A DNA stretch of 64,000 nt from Chiloscyllium plagiosum. Its lineage: Eukaryota. The stretch spans positions 23,670,313 through 23,734,312 of the forward strand of contig NC_057719.1 of the NCBI RefSeq assembly GCF_004010195.1. Direction: 5' to 3'. Below the pieces are notes generated by a model. The model was not told where the DNA came from, searched no databases, and saw nothing but the letters and a program-made list of their open reading frames with translations. Below are positions 1 to 58,725 of this stretch, one piece after another. The position numbers and the translations under genes were made by a program. Within the stretch, counting starts at the first letter, position 1. The number at the start of each line of letters is the position of its first letter.

Positions 1-510
1 AAACCGGAGGAAGCAATTATGAAGGTAATTGGTTTGTTGACCTTCATTACTAGATGATCCAAGTACAGTCTTGCTGCAATGGTATAAAGTCGCAGTGAGA
101 TCGTATTTGAGGTATTGTTTCCAAGTTTGGTCTCTTCACCCATGGAAGGATGTAGTTCTCATTGAATGAGTGCAGCAGAAGTTGGTGAGTCTTTGGAATG
201 GTCTATCCAAAAGGGCTGTGGTACCTCAATCTCTGAGTGGATTCAAGACAAAAATCAATAGGTTTCTGGAGATGAATGATTTTCAGGGTTATGCAGACGG
301 AGGAGGGAAATAGCATGGACATAGATGATCAGACATGATCTAATCAAGTGGGAGAGTGGTTCTGAAGAAGATCTATACAGGTTTCAAAATGTTAGCTCCA
401 ATTCTCTCTCCACGATGCTGCCAGACTTGCTAACTTTCTCCAGCAATTTCCGTATTTGTTGTGGGGAAGCAGACTCGATAGGCGACTGGTCTACTCATGT
501 TCCTGTGTTC
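1..510 (+). mobile_element. Old CR1-clade LINE 3' fragment, interrupted by a PLE-derived insert
   Basis: Degenerate RT C-terminus (gtatttgaggtattgtttccaagtttggtct, cf. LEYCVQFWSP) and a CR1-type 3' UTR ending in ctactcatgttcctgtgttc. Confidence 0.75.
361..460 (+). mobile_element. Degenerate Penelope-derived pLTR monomer with decayed hammerhead core
   Basis: tctgaagaag...caaaatgttag...gatgctgccagacttgct...tccagca matches the copies at 15404, 40003 and 55541. Confidence 0.7.
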
Positions 511-5693: not shown

Positions 5694-6923
5694 TCTCTGC
5701 AATCTGAGAGGGAGAAGATAGAATCACAGGTAACGGTATTACAGCTGAATAAAGGCAACCACAGAGGCATGAGGGAGGACCTGGGTAGAATTGACTGGGA
5801 GAGGATCCTAGCAGGAAAGACAGTGGAACAGCAATGGCAGGAGTTTCTCAAAGTAATTCAGGAGACACAGAAGAGATTCATCCCAAGGAAAAAGAAGCAT
5901 GGTACAGGAAGGATGAGGCAACCATGTCTGACTAGACAAGTCAGAGATAACATAAAAGCCAAAGAGAAATCATATAGTGTGGTGAAGGCAGTGGAAACCA
6001 AAAGGACTGGGAAGCTTACAAAGACCAACAGAGGGCAACAAAAAAAGAAATAAGGAGAAAGAAGATTAAATATGAGGATAAGCTGGCCAGTAATATAAAG
6101 GAAGACTGTAAGAGCCTCTTTAGGCATACAAAAGGCAAAAGAGAGGCAAGAATAGACATTGGGCCGCTGGAAAAAGATACTAGAGAGATAGTAGTGGGGA
6201 ACAAGGAAATGGCTGAGGAACTGAATAATTCTGTCACATCAGTCTTCACGGTGGAGGATGAATAATATCCCAAAGATTCAAGAGAGTGAGGAGGCAGAGC
6301 TGAGTATGTTGGCTATCACCAAGGAGAAGGTGCTAGGAAAATTGAGTGGCCTGAAGGTGGATCAATCACCTGAAGCAGAAGGACTACACCCGAGAGTTCT
6401 AAGGGAGAGAGCTGAAGAGATGGTGGAGACGTTAGTGATGATCTTTCAGGAATCGTTAGAATCAGGGAGGGTCTCAGAGGACTGGAAAATTGCTAACATG
6501 ACACCCCTGTTTAAAAATGGAGTAAGGTAAAAGATGAAAAATTATAGACCAATTAGCCAAACCTCGGTCGTGGGCAAAATCCATTGTGATGGATAAGATT
6601 TCTGAATACTTGGAAGTGTATGGTAAAATAGGGCAAAGTCAGCATTGTTTTATCAAGGGGAGTCATGCTTGACAAATCTGCTAGAATTCTTTGAGGAAGT
6701 AACGAGCAGGTGAGATCAAGGAGAACCAATGGATGTTATCTACCTGGACTTCAAGAAGGCTGTACAGGAAGCTACTGAGCAAGATAAGGACCCATGGTGT
6801 CAGCGGCAAGGTGCTAGCATGGATAGAAGCTTGGCTGTCTAGCAGTAAACAGAAAGTGGGGATAAAAGGATCCTTCTCAGGATGGCAGTTGGTGACAAGT
6901 GATGTTCTGCAAGGCTCAGTGTT

Positions 6924-7110
6924 TAGATTCGATTACAGTGTGGAAACAGGCCCTTCGGCCCAACAAGTCCACACCGACCCGCCGAAGCACAACCCACCCA
7001 TACCCCTACATTTACCCCTTACCTAACACGACAGGCAATTTAGCATGGCCAATTCACCTGACCTGCACATCTTTGGACTGTGGGAGGAAACCGGAGCACC
7101 CGGAGGAAAA
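6924..7110 (-). mobile_element. 5'-truncated HE1 SINE inside CR1
   Basis: tagattcgattacagtgtggaaacaggccc...aaaccggagcacccggagg is the reverse complement of the 3' half of 3612-3919. Confidence 0.95.
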
Positions 7111-7137
7111 CTTCGGTCATGGGCAAAATGTTGAGAC

Positions 7138-7335
7138 CTGAAAATGTGTTGCTGGAAAAGCGCAGCAGGACAGGCAGCATCCAAGGAACAGGAGAATCGA
7201 CGTTTCGGGCATAAGCCCTTCTTATGCCCGAAACGTCGATTCTCCTGTTCCTTGGATGCTGCCTGACCTGTTGCGCTTTTCCAGCAACACATTTTCAGCT
7301 CTGATCTCCAGCATCTGCAGTCCTCACTTTCTCCT
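7138..7335. mobile_element. Palindromic PLE-derived fold-back element
   Basis: Arms 7138-7215 and 7221-7298 (78 bp, 2 mismatches), tail tccagcatctgcagtcctcactttctcct, flanking repeat tgttgagacc at 7129 and 7339. Confidence 0.9.
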
Positions 7336-7968
7336 CAGTGTTGAGACCACAACTTTTCACTTTATACATTAACAATCTCAAGGAAGAAACAAGGGCATTC
7401 TGGCTAAGTTTGCAAATGATATAAAGATAGATAGAGAGACAGGTAACATTGAGGAGGTGGGGAGACTGCAGAATGGTTTGGACGGGTTAGGAGAGTGGGC
7501 AAAAAAGTGGCAGAGGAATAGAATGTCAGAAAATGTGAGGTCATGCACTTTGGTAGGAAGAATAGAGCATGGACTATTTCCTAAATGGGGAGAAAATTCG
7601 AAAGTCTGAAGTGCAAAGAGACTAGGGAGTTCGAGTCCAGGACTCTCTCTAGGTAAACTTGCAGGTTGAGTCAGTAGTTAGGAAAGTAAATGCAATGATG
7701 GCATTTATTTTGAGATGACTTGACTATAAAAGTAGGGATGTACTTCTGAGGCTGTATAAGACTCTGGTCAGACTACATTTGGCATATTGTGCGCAGTTTC
7801 AGGAAGGATGCCCTGGCCCTGGACCATGTTCAGAGGAGGTTCACGAGAATGGTCCCAGGAATGAAACCATTAACATATGAGAAAAGTTTAAGGACTTTAA
7901 GTCAACATCCATAGAGTTTAGAAGCGAGTTTTGATAAGATTTGTAGCTCAAGTTGAGGTTTTGGATGT

Positions 7969-8821
7969 ATGATTTGGAGATGCCAGTGTTGGACTGGGAT
8001 GTACAAAGTTTAAAAATTACACAACACCAGGTTATAGTCCAACAGGTTTAATTGGAAGCACTAGCTTTCGGAGCGACGCTCCTTCATCAGGTGATTGTGG
8101 AGGACACAATTGTAAGACACAGAATTTATAGCAAAAGTTTATAGTGTGATGTAACTAAAATTATACATTGAAAAATGCCTTGATTGTTTGTTGAGTTTTC
8201 ATCTGTTGGAATACCATGATAGTTTCATTTCTTTCATGTGTAAGTCACAAAACTATTTTTTAAAAGTTACATTCTCAGGTTAACTGTAACAATTGGTGTT
8301 AGTCAGATAATATGTTGAAGGTGTTAACCCCCTGTGTTCTCTGTCTGTGCCATAATGTTTCGACTGATTCTAATCTAAAATGTAAGATAACAGAGTTTTA
8401 CATGAATTCATGCAGTTTTTGAACAAAGTACAATGTAACTGCAAGTACAAATTCACCCCACAAACGTATATGCATATGTGTGCGTGTGTGCGTGTGTGTG
8501 TCTGTCTGTCTATTTGTCTGGGGTGGGGGGTTGTGAATGTGACAAAGAGTGTATATGTCTGTGTATGTGAGTGTAGAGTGTCTAAATCTGTGAGGGGATG
8601 CATGTGTGAGTGTGGGAGTGTGTGTATGTCTGGGGTGGGGGGTTGTGAATGTTTGTGAGAGAGAGTGTATGTGTGTGTGTAGAGTGGTCTAAGTCTGGGA
8701 GAGGATGTATGTGTGAGTGTGGGAGCGTGTGTGTCTGTAAGGGTGTGCGACTGTCTGTGTGCGTGCCTGTGTATATGTTTTTCCGTGTGTATGTGTATAG
8801 GAGTGCGTGTGTGTGTGTGTG
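7969..8821 (-). mobile_element. PLE-derived element with hammerhead motif and TG-rich spacer
   Basis: Reverse strand reads cacctgatgaaggagcgtcgctccgaaagctagtg, then attaaa and the tail ccagtccaacactggcatctccaaatcat. Confidence 0.8.
8059..8093 (-). ncRNA. Minimal type I hammerhead ribozyme motif
   Basis: CAC-CUGAUGA-A-GGAGC-GUC-GCUCC-GAAA-GC-UA-GUG: intact core, 5-bp stem II, 3-bp stem I, palindromic AGCU stem III. Confidence 0.75.
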
Positions 8822-8822
8822 T
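8465..8822. repeat. Degenerate (TG)n low-complexity region with an imperfect internal duplication of about 115 bp
   Basis: tctggggtggggggttgtgaatgt at about 8517 and 8628; gcatgtgtgagtgtgggag-like block repeated. Confidence 0.9.
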
Positions 8823-8989
8823 AAGCGAAGAAGGACACCACTTCAACTGGGACAACACATCCATCCTAGGACAAGCCAAATAAAGACACGCACGAGAATT
8901 CCTAGAAGCATGGCATTCCAACCGGAACTCTATCAACAAATTCATCGAGTTGGACCCCATCTACCACTCCCAAGAAAAGGAACAGGAAG

Positions 8990-9035
8990 TGACTTCACTA
9001 CAGGAAATAACATCACCACGGGAAATGACATCACC
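8990..9035 (+). repeat. Imperfect 18-bp tandem repeat (3 copies, first beginning near 8982) in the PLE pLTR
   Basis: acaggaagtgacttcact / acaggaaataacatcacc / acgggaaatgacatcacc. Confidence 0.8.
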
Positions 9036-10618
9036 AACCCAAAGAAGCCCAAACATATAAATAGAAAGCAGGAATTTTCAGCATTGCTTTGCCTGAGGCC
9101 CACTGAAGATGAAACGTCTGGAAATGAACTTTGCAACTAAGCGAGCAGACCTACGTCAAAGAGTTTAGAAGGATGGAGGGGGTATCTAATTGAAACATAT
9201 AGAATACTAATGGCCTGGACAGAGTAGATGTTGGGAAGATGTTTCCATTGGTAGGAGAAACTAGGACCTGAGGGCACAGCCTTAGAGTAAAGGAAAGAGT
9301 TTTAGAATGGAGATGAGGAGAAACTTCTCCAGCCAGAGAGTGGTGAATCTATGGAATTCATTGCCACAGAAGTTGTGGAGGCCAGGTCATTGAGTATATT
9401 TAAGATGGACATAGAAATGTTCTTGAGTACCAAGGGGATGAAGAGTTATGGGGAGAAAACGGGAGGATGGAGTTCACAAACCTATCAGCTATGACTGAAT
9501 GGTGGATCGTCTCAATGGGCTGAATGGCCTAATTTCTACTCCTATGTCTTATGGTCTTATGGTCTAACAGCCTACCCCATATCCTTCCATTGTGACCCCT
9601 GTTGTTAAACTCACTGGTCATTAAGAACATCCTTTCTGCATCTGCTATGTCTAATCTTGTTAAAAATGTATAGTTTTCTATCAAATCCAAACTCTGCCCC
9701 CATTCTTCGAAACTCAAGTGAATATATTTGTAACAGATTAGTCTCGCCTCATGCATCATGACATTGCTGCACTGGGAGTCAAAGTAGGTCAGTTAGCAGA
9801 GTGGTGATGGATAAACGGGACTAGGATGCTGTCTCTGGAATTCTCTCTGGAAAGGCCTTGGTGACAGTGGAAATAAAAAATTTAGATGCCTCAATCTAGG
9901 CATCTATTTTAGCAGCGTTCTGGCATTTCTATTTTCCCAGTTGTCTAAGAAGTAATGACTGCCGAAAGTACATACCCATTACTCTGGAGAATTAAAAAAG
10001 AAAACCTTTTTTAAGGTTCAGTGAAAATCTAAGAACTTCAAAATTTCCACAAACCCAGAGTCCCATAGATGCAATTCATTTGGTTTTATTAAACTAATGA
10101 GCCAAGAAGGTAGCAGAAGGTTTGTTGATGATAGCATGCTGTAGATGTGAGTGTATACCCTATTTATGATGATGTTAATACTCATGGAGATGCCGTTTCC
10201 TGATACAGATATTCTGAAATACAGTAGTGGAATGGTATTCATCAAGTTGCTTCCGATCCAGGCTAAAATACTGACCTCTTCATTCAGTGAAACCAACTGG
10301 GGATAAAGCTAATTTAGATCAAATATTGATCAATAATGCAAGTTTAATTTGTGATCACATAACAAAAGGACCTCTGAGAAAAAGTAATCATAGCGTATTT
10401 GAATTCCATACAAAGTTTCTACATGATATATATAAGTACCAAATGCCATGAACTGAAATAAAGCCAATTATATTAATATGGGGAAACAAGTAGTGAAGGT
10501 TGATTAAATCAATAGCTTAAAAGTTAAAAAAACAGTGGAAATGTTGAACAGAATTATTCAAAACATTCAACAAAATAGAATCTACTTATAAACAAAAATT
10601 CAGCAAGAGAAACTTATT

Positions 10619-14690: not shown

Positions 14691-14945
14691 TTAAGAAGGG
14701 AAATGGAATATTAGACTTATTGCAAAGGAATTGGAATATGAGAATATGAAATTCCAGATAAATTCATACAGGGATTTGAGAAACTAAACCTGGAGTACTC
14801 TGTGCAGTAAATAAGCAAGAGCATATTTGCACTGGAGGTGATATCATGACGCTTCATGAGATTTATCCCTGGGATGAGAAGTTTACCATTTGATGAGAGA
14901 GTGAGTAAATGCAAGGGCAGGTTTTCCACTGGCCAGAGAGGGTGT

Positions 14946-15241
14946 TAGATTAGATTACTTCCAGTGTGGAAACAGGCCCTTCGGCCCAACAAGTCCACAC
15001 CGAAGCGCAACCCACCCAAACCTATTCCCCTATACCTAACGGTACAGACAATTTAGCATGGCCAATTCACCTAACCTGCACATTTTTGGACTGTGGGAGG
15101 AAACTGGAGCACCTGGAGGAAACCCACGCAGACACGGGGAGAATGTGCAAACTCCACACAGACAGTCACCTGAGGCAGGAATTGAACCCGGGTCTCTGGC
15201 GCTGTGATGCAGCAGTGCTAACCACTGTGCTACCATGCCGT
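14946..15241 (-). mobile_element. HE1 V-SINE
   Basis: Near full-length reverse complement of 3612-3919, with a small internal deletion. Confidence 0.95.
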
Positions 15242-15301
15242 ACAGTGTTGGTCTAGCATAAATGGGATTTACATTATGAGGACCTTGCAGAATCCCTGTT
15301 G

Positions 15302-15533
15302 TAGATTAGAGTGGTGCTGGAAAAGCACAGCAGTTCAGGCAGCAACCGAGGAGCAGGAAAATCGACATTTCGGGCAAAAGCCCTTCATCAGGAATAGAGT
15401 TGGCTGATGAAGGGCTTTTGCCAGAAACGTCGATTTTCCTGCTCCTTGGATGCTGCCTGAACTGCTGCGCTTTTCCAGCACCACTCTAATCTAGAATCTG
15501 GTTTCCAGCATCTGCAGTCTTTTTATTTTACCT
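15302..15533. mobile_element. Palindromic PLE-derived element with two opposed hammerhead cores
   Basis: Arms 15302-15391 and 15404-15493 (90 bp, 5 mismatches); 16-bp TSD agaatccctgttgtag at 15289 and 15534. Confidence 0.92.
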
Positions 15534-16058
15534 AGAATCCCTGTTGTAGCTGATTCTGAAGAAATTGCCTGGGAAATTGAAGTTTCCTCTAGGCAATTCC
15601 ACTATGTCTGAATCTTCTGAAAGTTTCCATGTAAATTGAAGGTTTAGGGTGGTTCCAATGAAATTAAGTAGAACAGTTACTCAGGAACAGTTAGTCCATT
15701 AAATGCATAGTCCAATTCCTGACTAATTATTAAAAAGACTCCATATTTGCCTCACACAGCCTCCCTATCTACACCAAATGTAGGCCACTTACATTCCCAG
15801 ACCCTGACCAGATGGCCCTCACACCCAACATCCATCTTCCTGGGTCTTGACACCCATCCCTCGTGAGATCTAATCTGACCAAAACCCCAAACCCCACCTT
15901 GCTGTTTCCAACGGACCCAACTCCTACATCCCACACCTCCATCCTGCCATCAGACCTGATCCTCACACTTCCACATATTCCCCTTCCCCTGCCTAATCTC
16001 ACCATCAGACCTTACCTTCCATGTCATCTGCCCGAACAGACTGGATTTAACCTTTTGT

Positions 16059-16376
16059 GGGCGGCACGGTGGCACAGTGGTTAGCACTGCTGCCTCATAG
16101 CACCAGAGACCCGGGTTCAATTCCCGACTCAGGTGACTGACTGTGTGGAGTTTGCACATTCTCCCCGTGTCTGCGTGGGTTTCCTCCGGGTGCTCCGGTT
16201 TCCTCCCACAGTCCAAAGATGTGCAGGTCAGGTGAATTGGCCATGCTAAATTGCCCGTAGTGTTAGGTAAAAGGGTAAATGTAGGGGTATGGGTGGGTTG
16301 CGCTTCGGCGGGTCGGCGTGGACGGGTTGGGCCGAAGGGCCTGTTTCCACACTGTAAGTAATCTAATCTAATCTAA
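16059..16376 (+). mobile_element. HE1 V-SINE, full length, young
   Basis: gggcggcacggtggcacagtgg...(ctaat)n; many CpGs retained. Confidence 0.95.
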
Positions 16377-39175: not shown

Positions 39176-40417
39176 GTCATAGGGTCATACAGCACAGAAA
39201 CGGACAGTTCAGTCCAACTTGTACATGCCAACTAGATTTCCTAAACTGAACAAGTCCCACTTCCCTGCATTTGTCCCATATCCCTATAAACCTTTCCTAT
39301 CTATATACCTGTCTTTTGAATGTTGTAATGATTCTCGCCTCCACTGCTTCTTTTGGCAGCTTGTACATGCCATCCTCCATGTGAAAATGTTGCCCCTTAG
39401 GTCCCTTTTAAATCTTTTCCCTCTTACCTGAAACTTATAGCCTCTGGTTTTGGACTCCCCTATCCCAGGGAAAAGACATTGGCTATTCACCTTATCCATG
39501 CCCCTCATGATTTTATAAGGTTACCTCTCAGCTCCCTCTGCTCCAGGGAAAAAAGTATCAAACTACTCGGCCTCTCCTTATAACTCAAACATTCCATTCT
39601 CGGTAACATCTTTGTAAATCTTTACTCCACCCTTTCCAGTTTAATAACACCCTTCCTTTATCAGGGTGACCAGAATTGTAGGAGTAAATTACTGCAGATG
39701 CTGTAATCTGCATTACAACCTTGTGGACTTGATGTTGAGTTCCACACCTTCAAATATTGAATCCAGTCCCATTCCTTCCCTCTCTTTAAGCTTTATTTGT
39801 TACATTCTCTGTCACCATGTCCTCTCTCCCCTTACCCCACTCCAGTGGGACCTCCGTATTCCTTCCAGTCTGGAAGTTAGACACACCATTGTTCTGCCAT
39901 TCTCACTTAATCTGAACTATCAACACCCTTTCTCCCCCAGCACTCCACCTGCACTATCCCCAACCATTGCATAAATGCTGTTCCCTCCACTCTTTACTTC
40001 AGCTCTGATGAAAAGTCATCTAGACTCAAAATGTTAGCTTCCTCTCTCTCCATGGATCTGCCTGACCCGCTGTGATGACCAGAATTTGATCTTACCAATG
40101 TCTTGTACATCTGCAACATACTTCCCAACTCCAAAACTCAATGGTCTGAACGATGAAGGCATGCATGCCAAATGCTGTTTTCACCACCCTGTCTACCTGT
40201 AATGCCACTTTGAAGGAATTATGTACCTGCACCCCTCGGTCTCTGTTCGACAACACTCCCCAGGGCCCTACCATTGACAGTGTAAATCTTGTCCTGGTTT
40301 GTCTTACCAAAATGCAACACCTTGCATTTATCTAAATCTGCCATTCCTCAGCCTATTGGCCCAGTTAATCAAGATCCCATTGCACTCTGAGATAAACTTC
40401 CTCACTGTCCACTATAG
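39176..40417 (-). mobile_element. CR1 (HER1-like) 3' part with a PLE insert
   Basis: agtcatagggtcatacagcacagaaac tail; ORFs MRGMDKVNSQCLFP and QVDRVVKTAFG. Confidence 0.9.
39678..40087 (+). mobile_element. Neptune-type PLE 3' fragment with decayed hammerhead
   Basis: 39713-39760 translates as LQPCGLDVEFHTFKY*; ctgatgaaaagtcatctagactcaaaatgtt at about 40005; inverted tail ctgcagatgctg at the 5' end. Confidence 0.75.
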
Positions 40418-45589: not shown

Positions 45590-45709
45590 TACAAGCTTCC
45601 TGCTACAAGGAGGTGTGCTGTGCAGGAGCATGAAAAAAATACAACTAAAACCTAAGATGTGAAGAATTAATCAAATTTCACTTTTAGCAAATAACCATAA
45701 TTGACAGAA

Positions 45710-45802
45710 TCAAAACGTGTAGTGCTGGAAAAACACAACAAGTCAGGCAGCATCCGAGAAGCAGGAGAGTCAACGTTTCGGGCATGAGCTCTTCATCAGG
45801 AA
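45710..45802 (-). mobile_element. PLE-derived hammerhead monomer
   Basis: Reverse strand ttcctgatgaagagctcatgcccgaaacgttga; 8-bp TSD tgacagaa at 45702 and 45803. Confidence 0.85.
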
Positions 45803-46389
45803 TGACAGAAACCAACTAACATGCTTTGAAATGAATGCAAATTGTGAGGCACTTATTGCACTGCTCCTTTATTGCTGAAAAATGATTGTTTTCAACGTAT
45901 TATCTGGGTCGCTGATTCACAGTAAATGAAGCAATAACACACCAATTGCAAACATAAATTGTTTGTTTACACATTTAAATAACCTCCTATCTGTTCCAGG
46001 GCACCAGTAGTATGCCCTTGGGAGCACTGGTCACATCAGTGTTGGGAAGAGGATTGTAAATTATTATTCCATCAGTTTCAGCTTACTGCTACCATAAGTG
46101 GGAGATGTAAAGACCTAATTTAATTACGATGATAACATACATATTTGTCAACACACTCGTTTTTATTCCTTGGACAGCAACCTGGCACTGCAGATCACTG
46201 ATGGTTACAGAACCCACCTCATTTGCAGCCCACAATGTCAATCATTCAACCTAAATTCATCCCTTTTTTGATGGATATGTTAGGCTGAGATTTGGCCTCA
46301 TTAGTACTAAACATATCTAATAAATCAATTTTTAGTAAGTGTAATGGACAATCAACGATGGACAAATTCAGAAAATGATTAAGGAGGGG

Positions 46390-54175: not shown

Positions 54176-55529
54176 AAAGATTGGGACAATAAAAACAAAC
54201 AGGAACGTCATTTGATTATCCTGTCAAAGTTATAGGATTCTATGTCATTGCCCTCTCATTCTTCTAACCTCCAGTGAATAAAGTCCTAACCGATTCAGCA
54301 ATCATTCTGGCAAACCTTTGTTGCACTCCCTTCAAAGCCAGAACATCCTTCCTAAGATCAATCTTACCAAAGCCCTGTACAACTGCAACAAGGCATCACT
54401 GCTCCTACACTCGAATCCTCTTCCCTTTGTAACTGGCTGCAAGTTGCAGACCTTTCTTAAACAGCACAGTCTTCAAATGTGAATTCTATTTTACTGGCAT
54501 TCATGCAGTCCCTTTTGTGTATAGGACTGTAAGGAAGACCGAAGATTTGTTCAGAAATGAAGCCCATCTCAGCTTCAATCCACACATCACACTGAATAGT
54601 AACATGCTAGCTCCCATGTCCAAATTAGTAGGAACTCAAAAATGAAAAATAAAAGTAAATTCATTTTGTTTTAGGTGTGGGATTGCATATATTTTATTTC
54701 CAGTTATGAGTAATATTTGAGTCAACAGGAAAAGTTAAAAACAAGCAACATCAATGTTATTTCCTTCTAAACAGCTGCCTTTATTACTTATAATTAACTC
54801 AATTATTTTATTTACAATTTACAATCAGCCCAGTAAATGAAAAACAGATGGCTTCATTGCTGGAGAAATAGTGTTGAATCTGTGACATTGACATATTGAT
54901 CAATCAAAACATAGGATTCTCCAAAGAATTAACAATAAATATATATAAATGAACCAATGGTAGTAAGCATGCTGGCAATGACTGAAATTTCATGTTCCTC
55001 AAGGTTTATCGCAAAATAAAAATTGAGACTCATCAGCGCAAATGTATCTTCTTTACTGATGTGCAGAAATGCTAAGATAAACATCAAAGAAGATAACATC
55101 CTATAACCTTGGGATAATTTTTAATCCCCCTTGAAGGGCAACAGAGCATCAGGTAGAGGTTTAAAGCAGAAAAGCGGCAGAAGGCAGCTTACCCCCATCT
55201 TCTCCAGGCAATGAGGAATCAGCAATACATCGAACACAGTCAGCAACACCCGCATCCCATGAATGAATAAAACTAATTGACATCTGACTCCAAAGTGCTG
55301 CAAACTCCAATTTAACTGAGAGGTGTCTGAAGAGTCCATGGAACCCTTGAGAGGTGATCAGCTTTATAATATTCAACAATATAAAAAGAAGCCCTCTATC
55401 ATAAATTTTGAATTAAATGACTGCAAGATTTTTTTTGTCCCACAGAATGGGGAACCTGGCTGCTAAAGGGATGCAGTAGTAGTCATATCTACAAGGTAAG
55501 TGCATTTTATAGAACTGGTTATGGCAATA

Positions 55530-55657
55530 TGGCCTCATTCCTGATGAAGGGCTTAGGCCCAAAACGTCGATCCTCCTGCTTTTCGGATGCTACCTAACCT
55601 GCTGTGTTTTTCCAGCACCACACTCTCAACTCCAGCATCTGCAGTCCTCATTTTCTC
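55530..55657 (+). mobile_element. PLE-derived hammerhead monomer
   Basis: ctgatgaagggcttaggcccaaaacgtcga...tccagcatctgcagtcctcattttctc; 15-bp TSD ctggtt(a/g)tggcaata at 55515 and 55658. Confidence 0.88.
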
Positions 55658-55659
55658 CT

Positions 55660-56045
55660 GGTTGTGGCAATAACAGAGTTATGGTTATGGTGCTGGACAT
55701 GTAATCCAGGTGTCTCGAGTAAATTCCAGAGACATGAGTTCAAATCCCATAATGGCAACGGAAGACTGTTTGAATTCAATCCATTTTAAAAAACTGGAAT
55801 TAAAAAGCTAGTAACTGTAATAACAATCATGAAACTACATCTGGCTCACAAATACTCGTGAATGTGGGAGATCTACCATCCTTACCTGGTCTGGTTTATA
55901 TGTGAATCCAGTCCTAGAGCAATGTGGTCAAACTGTATAAGTGCCTTCTGAAATGCCCTCACAACCACTTTAACAAGAGAAATTAGGAATGGGTAATAAA
56001 TGCTGGCATTGCCCATGGTACCCACATTGTATGAATGAACACAGT
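55660..56045 (+). mobile_element. SINE family B
   Basis: gagttcaaatccc B box, ccatccttacctggtctgg core, gggtaataaatgctggc tail. Confidence 0.85.
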
Positions 56046-58079
56046 AAAAAACTTGACTGACATGTGATCACTTATGATCTCCAGATCAGCTTCATAATCA
56101 TGAGATTACCCAAATTCTCTCTGTGATCCACAGACTCAATCCTACCTCAGACTGTCTCATATCTTATCTTTGTCTTTTTAAAGCGATTAGACAAAAATTC
56201 ACCCCTCAAGACCTATTGTCGGACGTTCAGACCCTGCACCACAGTCTGTCCTCTTCATTCTTGCTGTCCACGTGGTTTTCAAATATCCCGGAATGCTTGG
56301 CACCCAGTTGTGTGATCACCGCCATATAACCTTTCCTATTCCATCCTCCACAATCTCTTCCTCACTCCCTCATTTGCTGCTCACTCTAATTCACACCCTA
56401 ACTATCCCTGCCCATCCTGGTTGCATCTCCTTGAATTATTAGAGTAAATCTCTGCATCTCCTCACTGTGAACTGCTTTTGCTGGCTTTCGCAGTCAGCAG
56501 ACAGATGCCTCTCAATCTGGCCAGCAGCTGGACGGGAACAGCAGATTAACAGAGTGAACGAATGCTAATAAACTCCTGCTTTCGCATATGGCAAGACCTC
56601 TGCCTTACCTGCTCATCAAGGTTGAAGCATTGTGCCAGTTGCTGTTTAAAGATTGGCATCCTTAGTAATAAAAACTGCACAGTTACTTTTACACTAAATA
56701 GTTGAATTCAAACTTAACTAATATTTGTTTCATTTGGGGCAACTAATTTAGTTTGTCATGAATTGAATTAGAAATTATACGAACAAAATTGATTGTAATT
56801 TCTAACGAAATTGCCCCTTTAACATTGCTCCAAGATCAAAGCTGACACTTTTCTACAGAGATTTCCTTTTAATTGTTTCTGGGTTGTTGTAAAACTCATG
56901 TACTGCATAGGATTATATTGCTAGGTTCTCTTTAAATCTCAGAGAATAACATGTTCTACATCACAATTACTCGGCAGGAATATCAGAGAAAACAAGCCAA
57001 AATCATTTTGACCTTGTGCTCATGTCATGAGTGCAAATAAAAGACTCATCTTTGCCATAAACAACAGAAGAATATGATGACGGGACTCGAAATCTTGTGG
57101 TCTGTTGCTCAGTGTTACCTTTCATGACTTCCTAAATGTCAAGTTTCCAATTTTGGCTACAGCAAAAAAACACAGGGCAACTCAGTCTAGCATCAACTTT
57201 GCACTGACTATAACGGAATCAAATTGCCAGAGCTTTACATCTGCAGTGTAAGGTTGAGATAAGATGCAAGTTGAAATCACATAAATGTGGAGAGGTCACA
57301 AAGTCCGAACGACTCAAAAGAGCCAAGTGCTGGGTGGTTGTGTATCATAATTCTCACATTTCAAACAAAAAGGGCTAAACTAATATACACTTCACAGACC
57401 TGAAGGCTACGAGAACCCATCAGTGGTTGGCAGCAGCCTAGCTCTTCTCAAATTCAATCAATTGTTTATTATTAGATTCCATTCTCTCACTGTTGTTTGA
57501 TTTGCTGAGTTAATTTCACATTGTTTACTCACACATAAATATAATTCTGCCACTACTGCAATTCTGTAAATGACCTACTAGTCTCTGTCATTTATCTTTC
57601 ATTATCTAATGATCCATAACAATCATCTGGAATGATAACAAATGGACAAATTTTACCACAATTGGCTAAATGTTACTTTCAGGGAGTTTCATGAGGGGTT
57701 TCTCTCCAAGACTTGCATTGAGTTTTCGCACAAAATTCACCACAGCTTACCTCATTAGCTATGCCCCACGTCTCTGTGTGCTCAGCAATAGTGGAAGTAC
57801 AAAGCACTGTCAGGACCTCCTGGGATTGCCACGGAGGTCATTTTTAAAAGCAAGCACTGCCAGCCAAGAGCTGCCCATCATAGTACATGTAGTAGGAGAA
57901 AAATTAAAACTAAATGTTTCTGAGGAGCATGTTGGTGGCAAGGATACATTTTATTGCAAATAACAAATTGATTTTCAGAGATGTTTACTATTTTACATAG
58001 TCAATCAGAGAGGTGACTGTCATTGCAACTGCAGCTATAAGCACCAGATTGCATTATTGTACTATTTACATTATGAGAA

Positions 58080-58320
58080 TGATTGCTCAGAATAAGGGCT
58101 ACGCTCTACAAGCATGCCTGATAAGCCCATTACACAATCTTCTGACTGAAACCAAGTGTAGATACAATGCAGCCCATTCTTCTGCCAGGCCCATCGTGGA
58201 GCAGACAATAAGCCTCCAGAAGATGAGCATCCAATGCTTGTGTCAGTCTGGGGGGGATCATTGCAGTGCACTCCAAAGTATGCAGCAAAATCTTTGAATG
58301 CCATGCTTTGCACAACTGGT
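58080..58320 (+). pseudogene. Harbinger DDE transposase C-terminal remnant
   Basis: NKGYALQACLISP...RYNAAHSSARPIVEQTISLQKMSIQCL..SGG, then HN after a frameshift; cf. GDxGYPL / YNxAHxxTRxxVE / LHN. Confidence 0.85.
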
Positions 58321-58647: not shown

Positions 58648-58725
58648 AGAGGCTGGAAGGACACAGTAAGCCTGGCAGCATCAGGAGGTAGAAAAGTTAA
58701 CGTTTTGTGTATAACCTTCCTTCAT
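58648..58725 (-). mobile_element. Decayed PLE-derived monomer inside the Harbinger element
   Basis: gctggaaggacacag...ggcagcatc...aacgtttt...cttcat. Confidence 0.6.

Follow-up and report, generated by a model that had tools for sequence, protein, structure and literature searches.

What kind of object is a hairpin that carries two hammerhead ribozyme cores, one on each strand, within a pair of direct repeats: a mobile unit in its own right, an RNA with a function, or the debris of something larger? The locus in question (unit A) lies in a 64-kb stretch of the genome of the shark Chiloscyllium plagiosum, which is the whole stretch of DNA that we analysed and to whose first base all coordinates refer; this window is repeat-rich, with about 40% G+C. 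We consider it likely that unit A is a dead-on-arrival insertion of an endonuclease-bearing (EN+) Penelope-like element (PLE), consisting of two copies of a hammerhead-bearing end module of ~90–130 nt.

Geometry of unit A and of its relatives

The original prediction of 90-bp inverted arms with 5 mismatches around a 12-nt spacer was reproduced throughout (15302–15391 and 15404–15493). The features of unit A are:

15289–15304 (+): left copy of the 16-bp direct repeat, a putative target-site duplication; 3 bases at its right end are shared with the tail-less end of the element
15302–15391 (−): left arm, the tail-less end module, with its sense on the − strand
15364–15391 (−): minimal hammerhead core of the left arm, which passes the descriptor described below; C15.2 is replaced by U, and helix I has 2 bp
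15392–15403 (−): 12-nt spacer, belonging at least partly to the left arm
15404–15493 (+): right arm, the end module from the first base of the catalytic core
15404–15431 (+): hammerhead core of the right arm, broken by an A in place of C11.1 (15423) and by a helix I that has no 5' strand
15494–15533 (+): 40-nt tail, confined to one arm; copies B and D have homologous tails
15534–15549 (+): right copy of the 16-bp direct repeat

On the + strand, the hairpin folds with −177 kcal/mol (z = −22.8), and none of 200 shuffles was equally stable. The 40-nt tail is placed outside the inverted repeat; it had been described as unique, which holds inside unit A but not beyond it, as it is common to the family copies at 7298–7338 and 55630–55657. 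The flanks had been read as a perfect 16-bp duplication of the target: the repeat is exact, and none of 3000 random pairs of 40-nt flanks, taken 230 bp apart in the 64-kb window, reached 16 bp (the maximum was 11 bp), but the length requires qualification. The final 3 bases of the left copy double as the continuation of the arm, and at the start of the right copy 2 bases may be the element's own end; the true duplication would then be 11–16 bp, or 13–16 bp counting the left overlap alone, the right overlap being putative. Two features of the surroundings and ends may be recorded here: a common short repeat lies on both sides of unit A in opposite orientation, giving a 39-nt inverted match (15202–15240 with 16062–16100), and the tails of A (15520–15535) and copy B (7325–7338) have at their ends a pyrimidine run followed by AG, which by sequence resembles a splice acceptor.

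Searches with blastn and nhmmer found six arms of the family at four loci (A–D) in the 64-kb window, three of them additional to unit A:

7129–7348: copy B, a second head-to-head unit, with arms at 7139–7221 (−) and 7222–7297 (+), a ~41-nt tail and a 10-bp direct repeat
45702–45810 (−): copy C, a tail-less monomer with an 8-bp direct repeat, whose end is close to that of the inverted arms
55515–55672 (+): copy D, a monomer with a tail and a 15-bp direct repeat (1 mismatch)

Together, the four copies account for 650 bp (1.0% of the window); inside the repeats, A measures 229 bp and B 200 bp. The tail comprises 40 nt in A and ~41 nt in B, is present in D and is absent from C. On the spacer's − strand in A, the last bases (ATTC) are the family sequence upstream of the core, as seen in copies C and D. 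The count of palindromes against monomers that had been called for, taken here for the 64-kb window, is two (A and B) to two (C and D), with repeats of 16, 10, 8 and 15 bp in the order A to D; that of C is weak on its own, as 8 bp was reached by 3% of the random flank pairs. A and B are also the sole close inverted repeats with >70% complementarity in the two regions scanned, from which 14901–15249 was left out. Copy B belongs to a sub-family other than that of copy A: its centre is asymmetric, unlike that of A, and the first catalytic box is absent from both of its arms. It is embedded in LINE-like sequence (6700–7700), beside the common short repeat that also flanks unit A; the LINE and SINE labels for this sequence are ones that we have assumed. 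Three fainter, more diverged relatives (E-values of 9e-7 to 6e-3) lie at 360–446 (+), 40005–40076 (+) and 58652–58724 (−); these older monomers follow the same plan, with core-like boxes and then the same two short conserved motifs, which suggests several waves of related elements.

Comparison of the copies bears on whether the palindrome moves as a unit, as proposed in the original prediction of a retrozyme-like element of ~230 bp. In an alignment of 69 bases, 5 positions differ between the two arms of A and 2 between those of B, as against 7–10 between the arms of A and those of B; three private variants are common to the A arms and two to the B arms, with none in all four cross-locus pairs. 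At the centre of A, the right arm runs from the first core base and the left arm reaches up to 12 nt before the core; at that of B, the right arm starts in loop II, and the left arm ~5 nt inside the core. Because the centres differ and the arms group by locus, the palindrome appears to have been built anew at each insertion rather than moved as a unit. A distinct palindromic non-autonomous element of ~230 bp (a fold-back retrozyme, or MITE-like), copied whole, could draw on the shared overall plan and length class of A and B (229 and 200 bp), and on the existence of non-autonomous PLE derivatives; we nevertheless regard it as very unlikely, given the unlike centres, the grouping of arms by locus, the monomers of the same module at two of the four loci, the variation of the repeats from 8 to 16 bp and the position of the tail outside the inverted repeat. 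A master palindrome is unneeded, and gene conversion with later deletion could mimic part of the pattern; monomers of both end types, the tail-less C and the tailed D, are present in the window.

In a MITE or fold-back DNA transposon, the terminal inverted repeats abut a duplication of fixed length, and copies are alike from end to end. This candidate was rejected on the repeats of 8–16 bp, the 40-nt tail outside the inverted repeat, the monomers and the unlike centres.

State and folding of the hammerhead cores

The two opposed cores, one per strand, are both present as they had been read: on the + strand, from 15404, stem II ends in GCCA and ACGT follows, and on the − strand, from 15391, the corresponding motifs are GCCC and ATGT. 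Their consensus fits that published for PLE minimal hammerheads (PMC4209133), after which we wrote a minimal-hammerhead descriptor; this found two sites in the window, namely the left arm of A and another family at 8090, as compared with a mean of 0 in 60 Markov controls. The description of the cores as minimal hammerheads of the PLE type is supported. Of the two, only that of the left arm still passes the descriptor, and that of the right arm is broken: the G10.1–C11.1 pair is lost at 15423, and helix I is without a partner. A hammerhead search had been advised; the Rfam hammerhead families gave no match over the whole window (E ≤ 1) or over 15392–15560 (E ≤ 10). What Rfam did match over unit A were microRNA-precursor models, all below their gathering scores, and we take these to be generic hairpin matches; the best, MIR6024, scored 55.1 bits against a gathering threshold of 72 bits, and a microRNA precursor was rejected as a candidate.

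The differences between copies have the appearance of decay. No compensatory change was found in the 9 core pairs of the four arms that keep the core, a comparison of little power, and covariation in stem II across copies, the absence of which had been named as a ground for refuting the original reading, was not seen in any of its 4 pairs in this small sample of 4 sequences. All 5 arm differences of A are uncompensated, and 4 of these fall at CpG, on 10 CpG positions among the 90 (P about 4e-4, somewhat inflated since the CpG set was read from the arms themselves). The CpG bias of the arm differences and the broken core point to neutral decay.

In folding calculations on unit A, pairing with the opposite arm at a probability of at least 0.95 was obtained for 26 of 28 bases in one core and 27 of 28 in the other, the probability of stem II is near 1e-12, and a hammerhead-like fold, when forced, costs 29–31 kcal/mol; with four prefixes per strand, the core was never freed. 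In any transcript, the antisense arm would be made first and the core captured in the long duplex, which would leave the ribozyme silent. The sequestration of the ribozyme in a hairpin RNA from either strand, as originally envisaged, is thus supported by folding, the core being buried on both strands. Cleavage of unit A as a cis-dimer is not possible, because the cores are on opposite strands and are buried in the hairpin; minimal hammerheads reportedly need a partner on the same strand, and cleave slowly (PMC4209133 and a review). The further suggestion of a conformational switch did not survive: the hammerhead-like fold carries the above cost, and no prefix frees the core, which is bound in every one.

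It might be argued that the hairpin has been kept for a function, either as a supplier of dsRNA or siRNA that targets the parent family, or as a switch that hides the ribozyme. The hairpin is very stable on both strands, small RNAs of PLEs have been reported in rotifer and fly (PMC3846280), and one Chiloscyllium gene model includes a family copy as an exon, which means that transcription of some copies does occur. We rate this explanation as very improbable, however: none of the five arm differences is compensated and four are at CpG, the cost of 29–31 kcal/mol and the lack of a core-freeing prefix mean that there is no switch, and no host-gene Pfam domain was found among the 149 open frames tested. 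Selection for a switch or siRNA role has left no sign in unit A, where the arm differences look like CpG decay and the hammerhead is broken on one arm; siRNA may nonetheless arise from it as a by-product.

Probable attribution to Penelope-like elements

That unit A originates from a PLE is, in our judgement, very likely, an attribution made for this family by architecture only. PLE insertions are laid out as a pLTR, an adjacent inverted 5'-truncated copy, a 30–40-bp tail and a short duplication (Craig et al. 2021, PMC8557442; Arkhipova et al. 2013, PMC3846280). Four of the five features by which we assessed membership in EN+ PLE insertions are found in unit A: the minimal hammerhead, the inverted 5'-truncated copy lying adjacent and head to head, the tail at one end only (40 nt, in the 30–40-bp class) and the target-site duplication, as judged from the exact 16-bp repeat. 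The attribution first made from the layout agrees with this, in that the arms, one-sided tail and duplication match the published PLE plan. Moreover, pairs of minimal hammerheads 100–700 bp apart on opposite strands have previously been mentioned (Cervera and De la Pena 2014, PMC4209133). Unit A is most likely a decaying insertion in a layout already known for PLEs, and neither a new mobile RNA nor a working switch.

The fifth feature would be a longer copy in which this end module is joined to a reading frame for RT plus GIY-YIG; within the window, no copy of the A–D family has its end module joined to a reading frame. With the peptide read in the frame that the ATG of the module sets, a protein search gave no match, and another frame matched only three Chiloscyllium gene models, in which the module is read as a short exon; a search of proteins clustered at 50% returned one known Chiloscyllium model and four repetitive proteins, which we treat as chance or analogy. 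Exact-pattern DNA scans of viral, prokaryotic and metagenome collections gave 0 loci. The literature search turned up no paper on this shark family, a weak result given that most subscription journals and Repbase/Dfam were outside the search. For the 1-kb stretch around unit A, 20 of the 24 entries listed by the run index hold all or part of it, and at least three coded organisms have more than half of its words; because common repeats form part of the stretch, these entries are not counted as evidence.

Two gene models deserve mention in their own right. In P0002, a FUBP3-like model from Chiloscyllium plagiosum, the final exon is a family copy. The repetitive protein model P0013 has a repeat that resembles the peptide read across a hammerhead core; what it represents may be a tandem hammerhead repeat of some other organism that was annotated as a gene.

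The family's want of a direct link to a PLE frame, and the LINE-type RT fragments that occur in the window, would be accommodated if the module were a SINE-like repeat carried by a LINE (CR1/L2), its arms being produced by an inversion of the L1 twin-priming type. This we hold to be extremely unlikely: the 3' end carries neither poly(A) nor a tandem repeat, what is inverted is a second copy of the same sequence rather than an upstream part, and the one-sided 40-nt tail and minimal hammerhead are marks of a PLE.

The PLE reading is direct, to judge from the sequence, for the neighbouring family F only. At 7910–9171, families E and F lie head to head in a single 15-bp direct repeat with 1 mismatch (7910 and 9157), a composite with the same geometry as unit A. 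Family E (− strand, about 7970–8830) has an intact minimal hammerhead at 8090, and family F (+ strand, 8821 to about 9156) is the 3' end of a PLE reading frame: its segment 8821–9057, with the stop read as X, shares 68% identity over 68 residues with the zebra-shark protein P0005, which has RT-like and GIY-YIG-like parts (Pfam matches below the curated cut-offs). At 9103–9125 (+), family F carries a shortened hammerhead in which little of stem II is left; P0005 continues across the corresponding position, where its stretch is longer. Some 45 nt between the end of E and the left repeat have no other copy in the window, and may be the tail of F.

Elsewhere in the window, a Pfam search of 149 of the 169 open frames of at least 70 aa gave sub-threshold matches only (RT three times, DDE nuclease and four others), with none inside unit A, and the named protein matches to window peptides are all from carpet sharks (Chiloscyllium, Stegostoma and Hemiscyllium). 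A weak match to DDE_Tnp_4 at 58001–58294 (+; E 1.6e-4, below the cut-off) is probably a scrap of a Harbinger-type transposon.

Origin of the two arms

In both palindromes, the tail-less arm extends further 5' and the tail is confined to the other arm. Neither arm is a full copy of the other, because each holds sequence that is missing from its partner, and each looks like a separate copy of the element RNA. As each arm has its own sequence, priming from both cut target strands fits better than fold-back, and on the strength of two palindromes we think it probable that two-strand priming was the source of the arms. The target matches the template at the left junction over 3 bases in A and 1 base in B, the former as would be expected if the cut target strand had primed there, and the tail-less end lies about where monomer C ends. 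The starts of all six arms fall no more than about 12 nt from C3, and no arm starts at the cleavage site (+28). This would fit an uncleaved template together with a fixed stop, or an RNA start, at the front edge of the hammerhead.

The events may be pictured as follows. The PLE protein would make a staggered cut with its nicks 13–16 bp apart, as gauged from the direct repeat. One cut strand would prime cDNA at a distal start site on uncleaved element RNA, giving the arm with the 40-nt tail; the other would prime at a proximal start site, helped by the 3-nt match to the template, and give the tail-less arm. Both cDNAs would stop at the front edge of the hammerhead and be united head to head, through end joining or a template jump, after which the inserted copy would decay neutrally, acquiring its CpG-biased arm differences and its broken core. 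Part of this has a precedent in vitro in an Anolis PLE, for which Frangieh et al. (2024, PMC11167929) show cutting and extension of both strands of the target, a pair of internal start sites on either side of the tail, and a template that is mainly uncleaved RNA. The origin of PLE inverted ends is still called undefined in the accounts at hand (PMC8557442, PMC3846280), and our literature search, a weak one in that most subscription journals lay outside it, found no paper that derives these ends from two-strand priming.

The published reading of rotifer Penelope palindromes instead invokes self-priming, with an antisense template (Arkhipova et al. 2013, PMC3846280). Applied here, the PLE origin would be the same, and the inverted arm would result from self-priming, through fold-back of a single cDNA or antisense transcript, with the centre trimmed later; the near-identity of the arms within each locus is what this would give. 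We find it unlikely, as the family sequence in the spacer of A is on the strand of the tail-less arm, which is the opposite of fold-back from a tail-bearing cDNA, as in B too it is the tail-less arm that extends further, and as a tail-less monomer ends near the same site, marking a start site. Likeness of arms within a locus could come from gene conversion, and palindrome centres can be deleted asymmetrically after insertion, a caveat to be borne in mind when the arms are compared.

Within the account of two-strand priming, a more specific idea can be offered tentatively, as the less probable side of the question: the stumps would be run-off ('strong-stop'-like) cDNAs, laid on both strands of one cut by a PLE protein dimer, from internal starts about 90 and 130 nt from an RNA 5' end just before the hammerhead. 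If this is true, every palindrome preserves one integration event with two ends, the composite at 7910–9171 would show that the two ends can load different RNAs, and the self-priming account of PLE inverted ends would be replaced; a shark genome with very many such copies would make the idea testable by counting junctions.

As a single locus, unit A is ordinary repeat debris, and its value is as a record of PLE integration. The asymmetry that it displays, with template sequence private to each arm, starts at the hammerhead edge and none at the cleavage site, is a prediction that can be counted, and it links the two start sites and two extended strands seen in vitro to genomic products. It also serves as a warning: Rfam scores hairpins of this kind as microRNA precursors, and gene models can take them in as exons.

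Comparison with known systems

Two kinds of retrozyme were considered for unit A and rejected. LTR retrozymes have a type III hammerhead in direct LTRs, a 4-bp duplication, a PBS and a PPT (Li, Clavereau and Pollet 2026, bioRxiv 10.64898/2026.07.22.740005), whereas unit A has a type I-like minimal core, inverted arms and a 16-bp repeat. Non-LTR retrozymes, which according to the same preprint occur in the one cartilaginous fish sampled, are like unit A in being non-coding, hammerhead-bearing and derived from PLE ends; they are, however, same-strand tandem repeats with at least two complete hammerheads, whereas unit A is inverted with one core per strand, and a tandem copy is absent from all four loci.

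The hammerheads of unit A share with the published minimal hammerheads of PLEs both catalytic boxes, the extra base before helix II, the G10.1–C11.1 pair, the palindromic 15.2/16.2 positions and the absence of helix III (PMC4209133); the supplement to that work, in the portion available, has no shark row. Helix II, of 4 bp, and helix I, of 2 bp, are among the shorter ones, the published helix I being mostly of 3–5 bp, and, in contrast to the published examples, one of the two cores of unit A is broken.

An RNA start at the edge of the hammerhead would differ from the situation in the fly Penelope, whose start is placed 46 bp upstream of an intron (Schostak et al. 2008, PMC2377424). PAc, the Poseidon element of Anolis carolinensis, is unrelated to the A–D family at the sequence level as far as tested, with no motif shared between its supplement and the family; its two RT start sites, two extended strands and uncleaved template all fit unit A, although joined head-to-head products are not described in the parts of that report available to us (PMC11167929).

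The closest likeness is to EN+ PLE insertions (PMC3846280, PMC8557442), with which unit A shares the head-to-head arms, the one-sided tail and the flanking repeat. It differs from them in being without a reading frame, with only ~90–130 nt per arm, and its repeat of 13–16 bp compares with one of 8–10 bp in the rotifer cases (PMC3846280).
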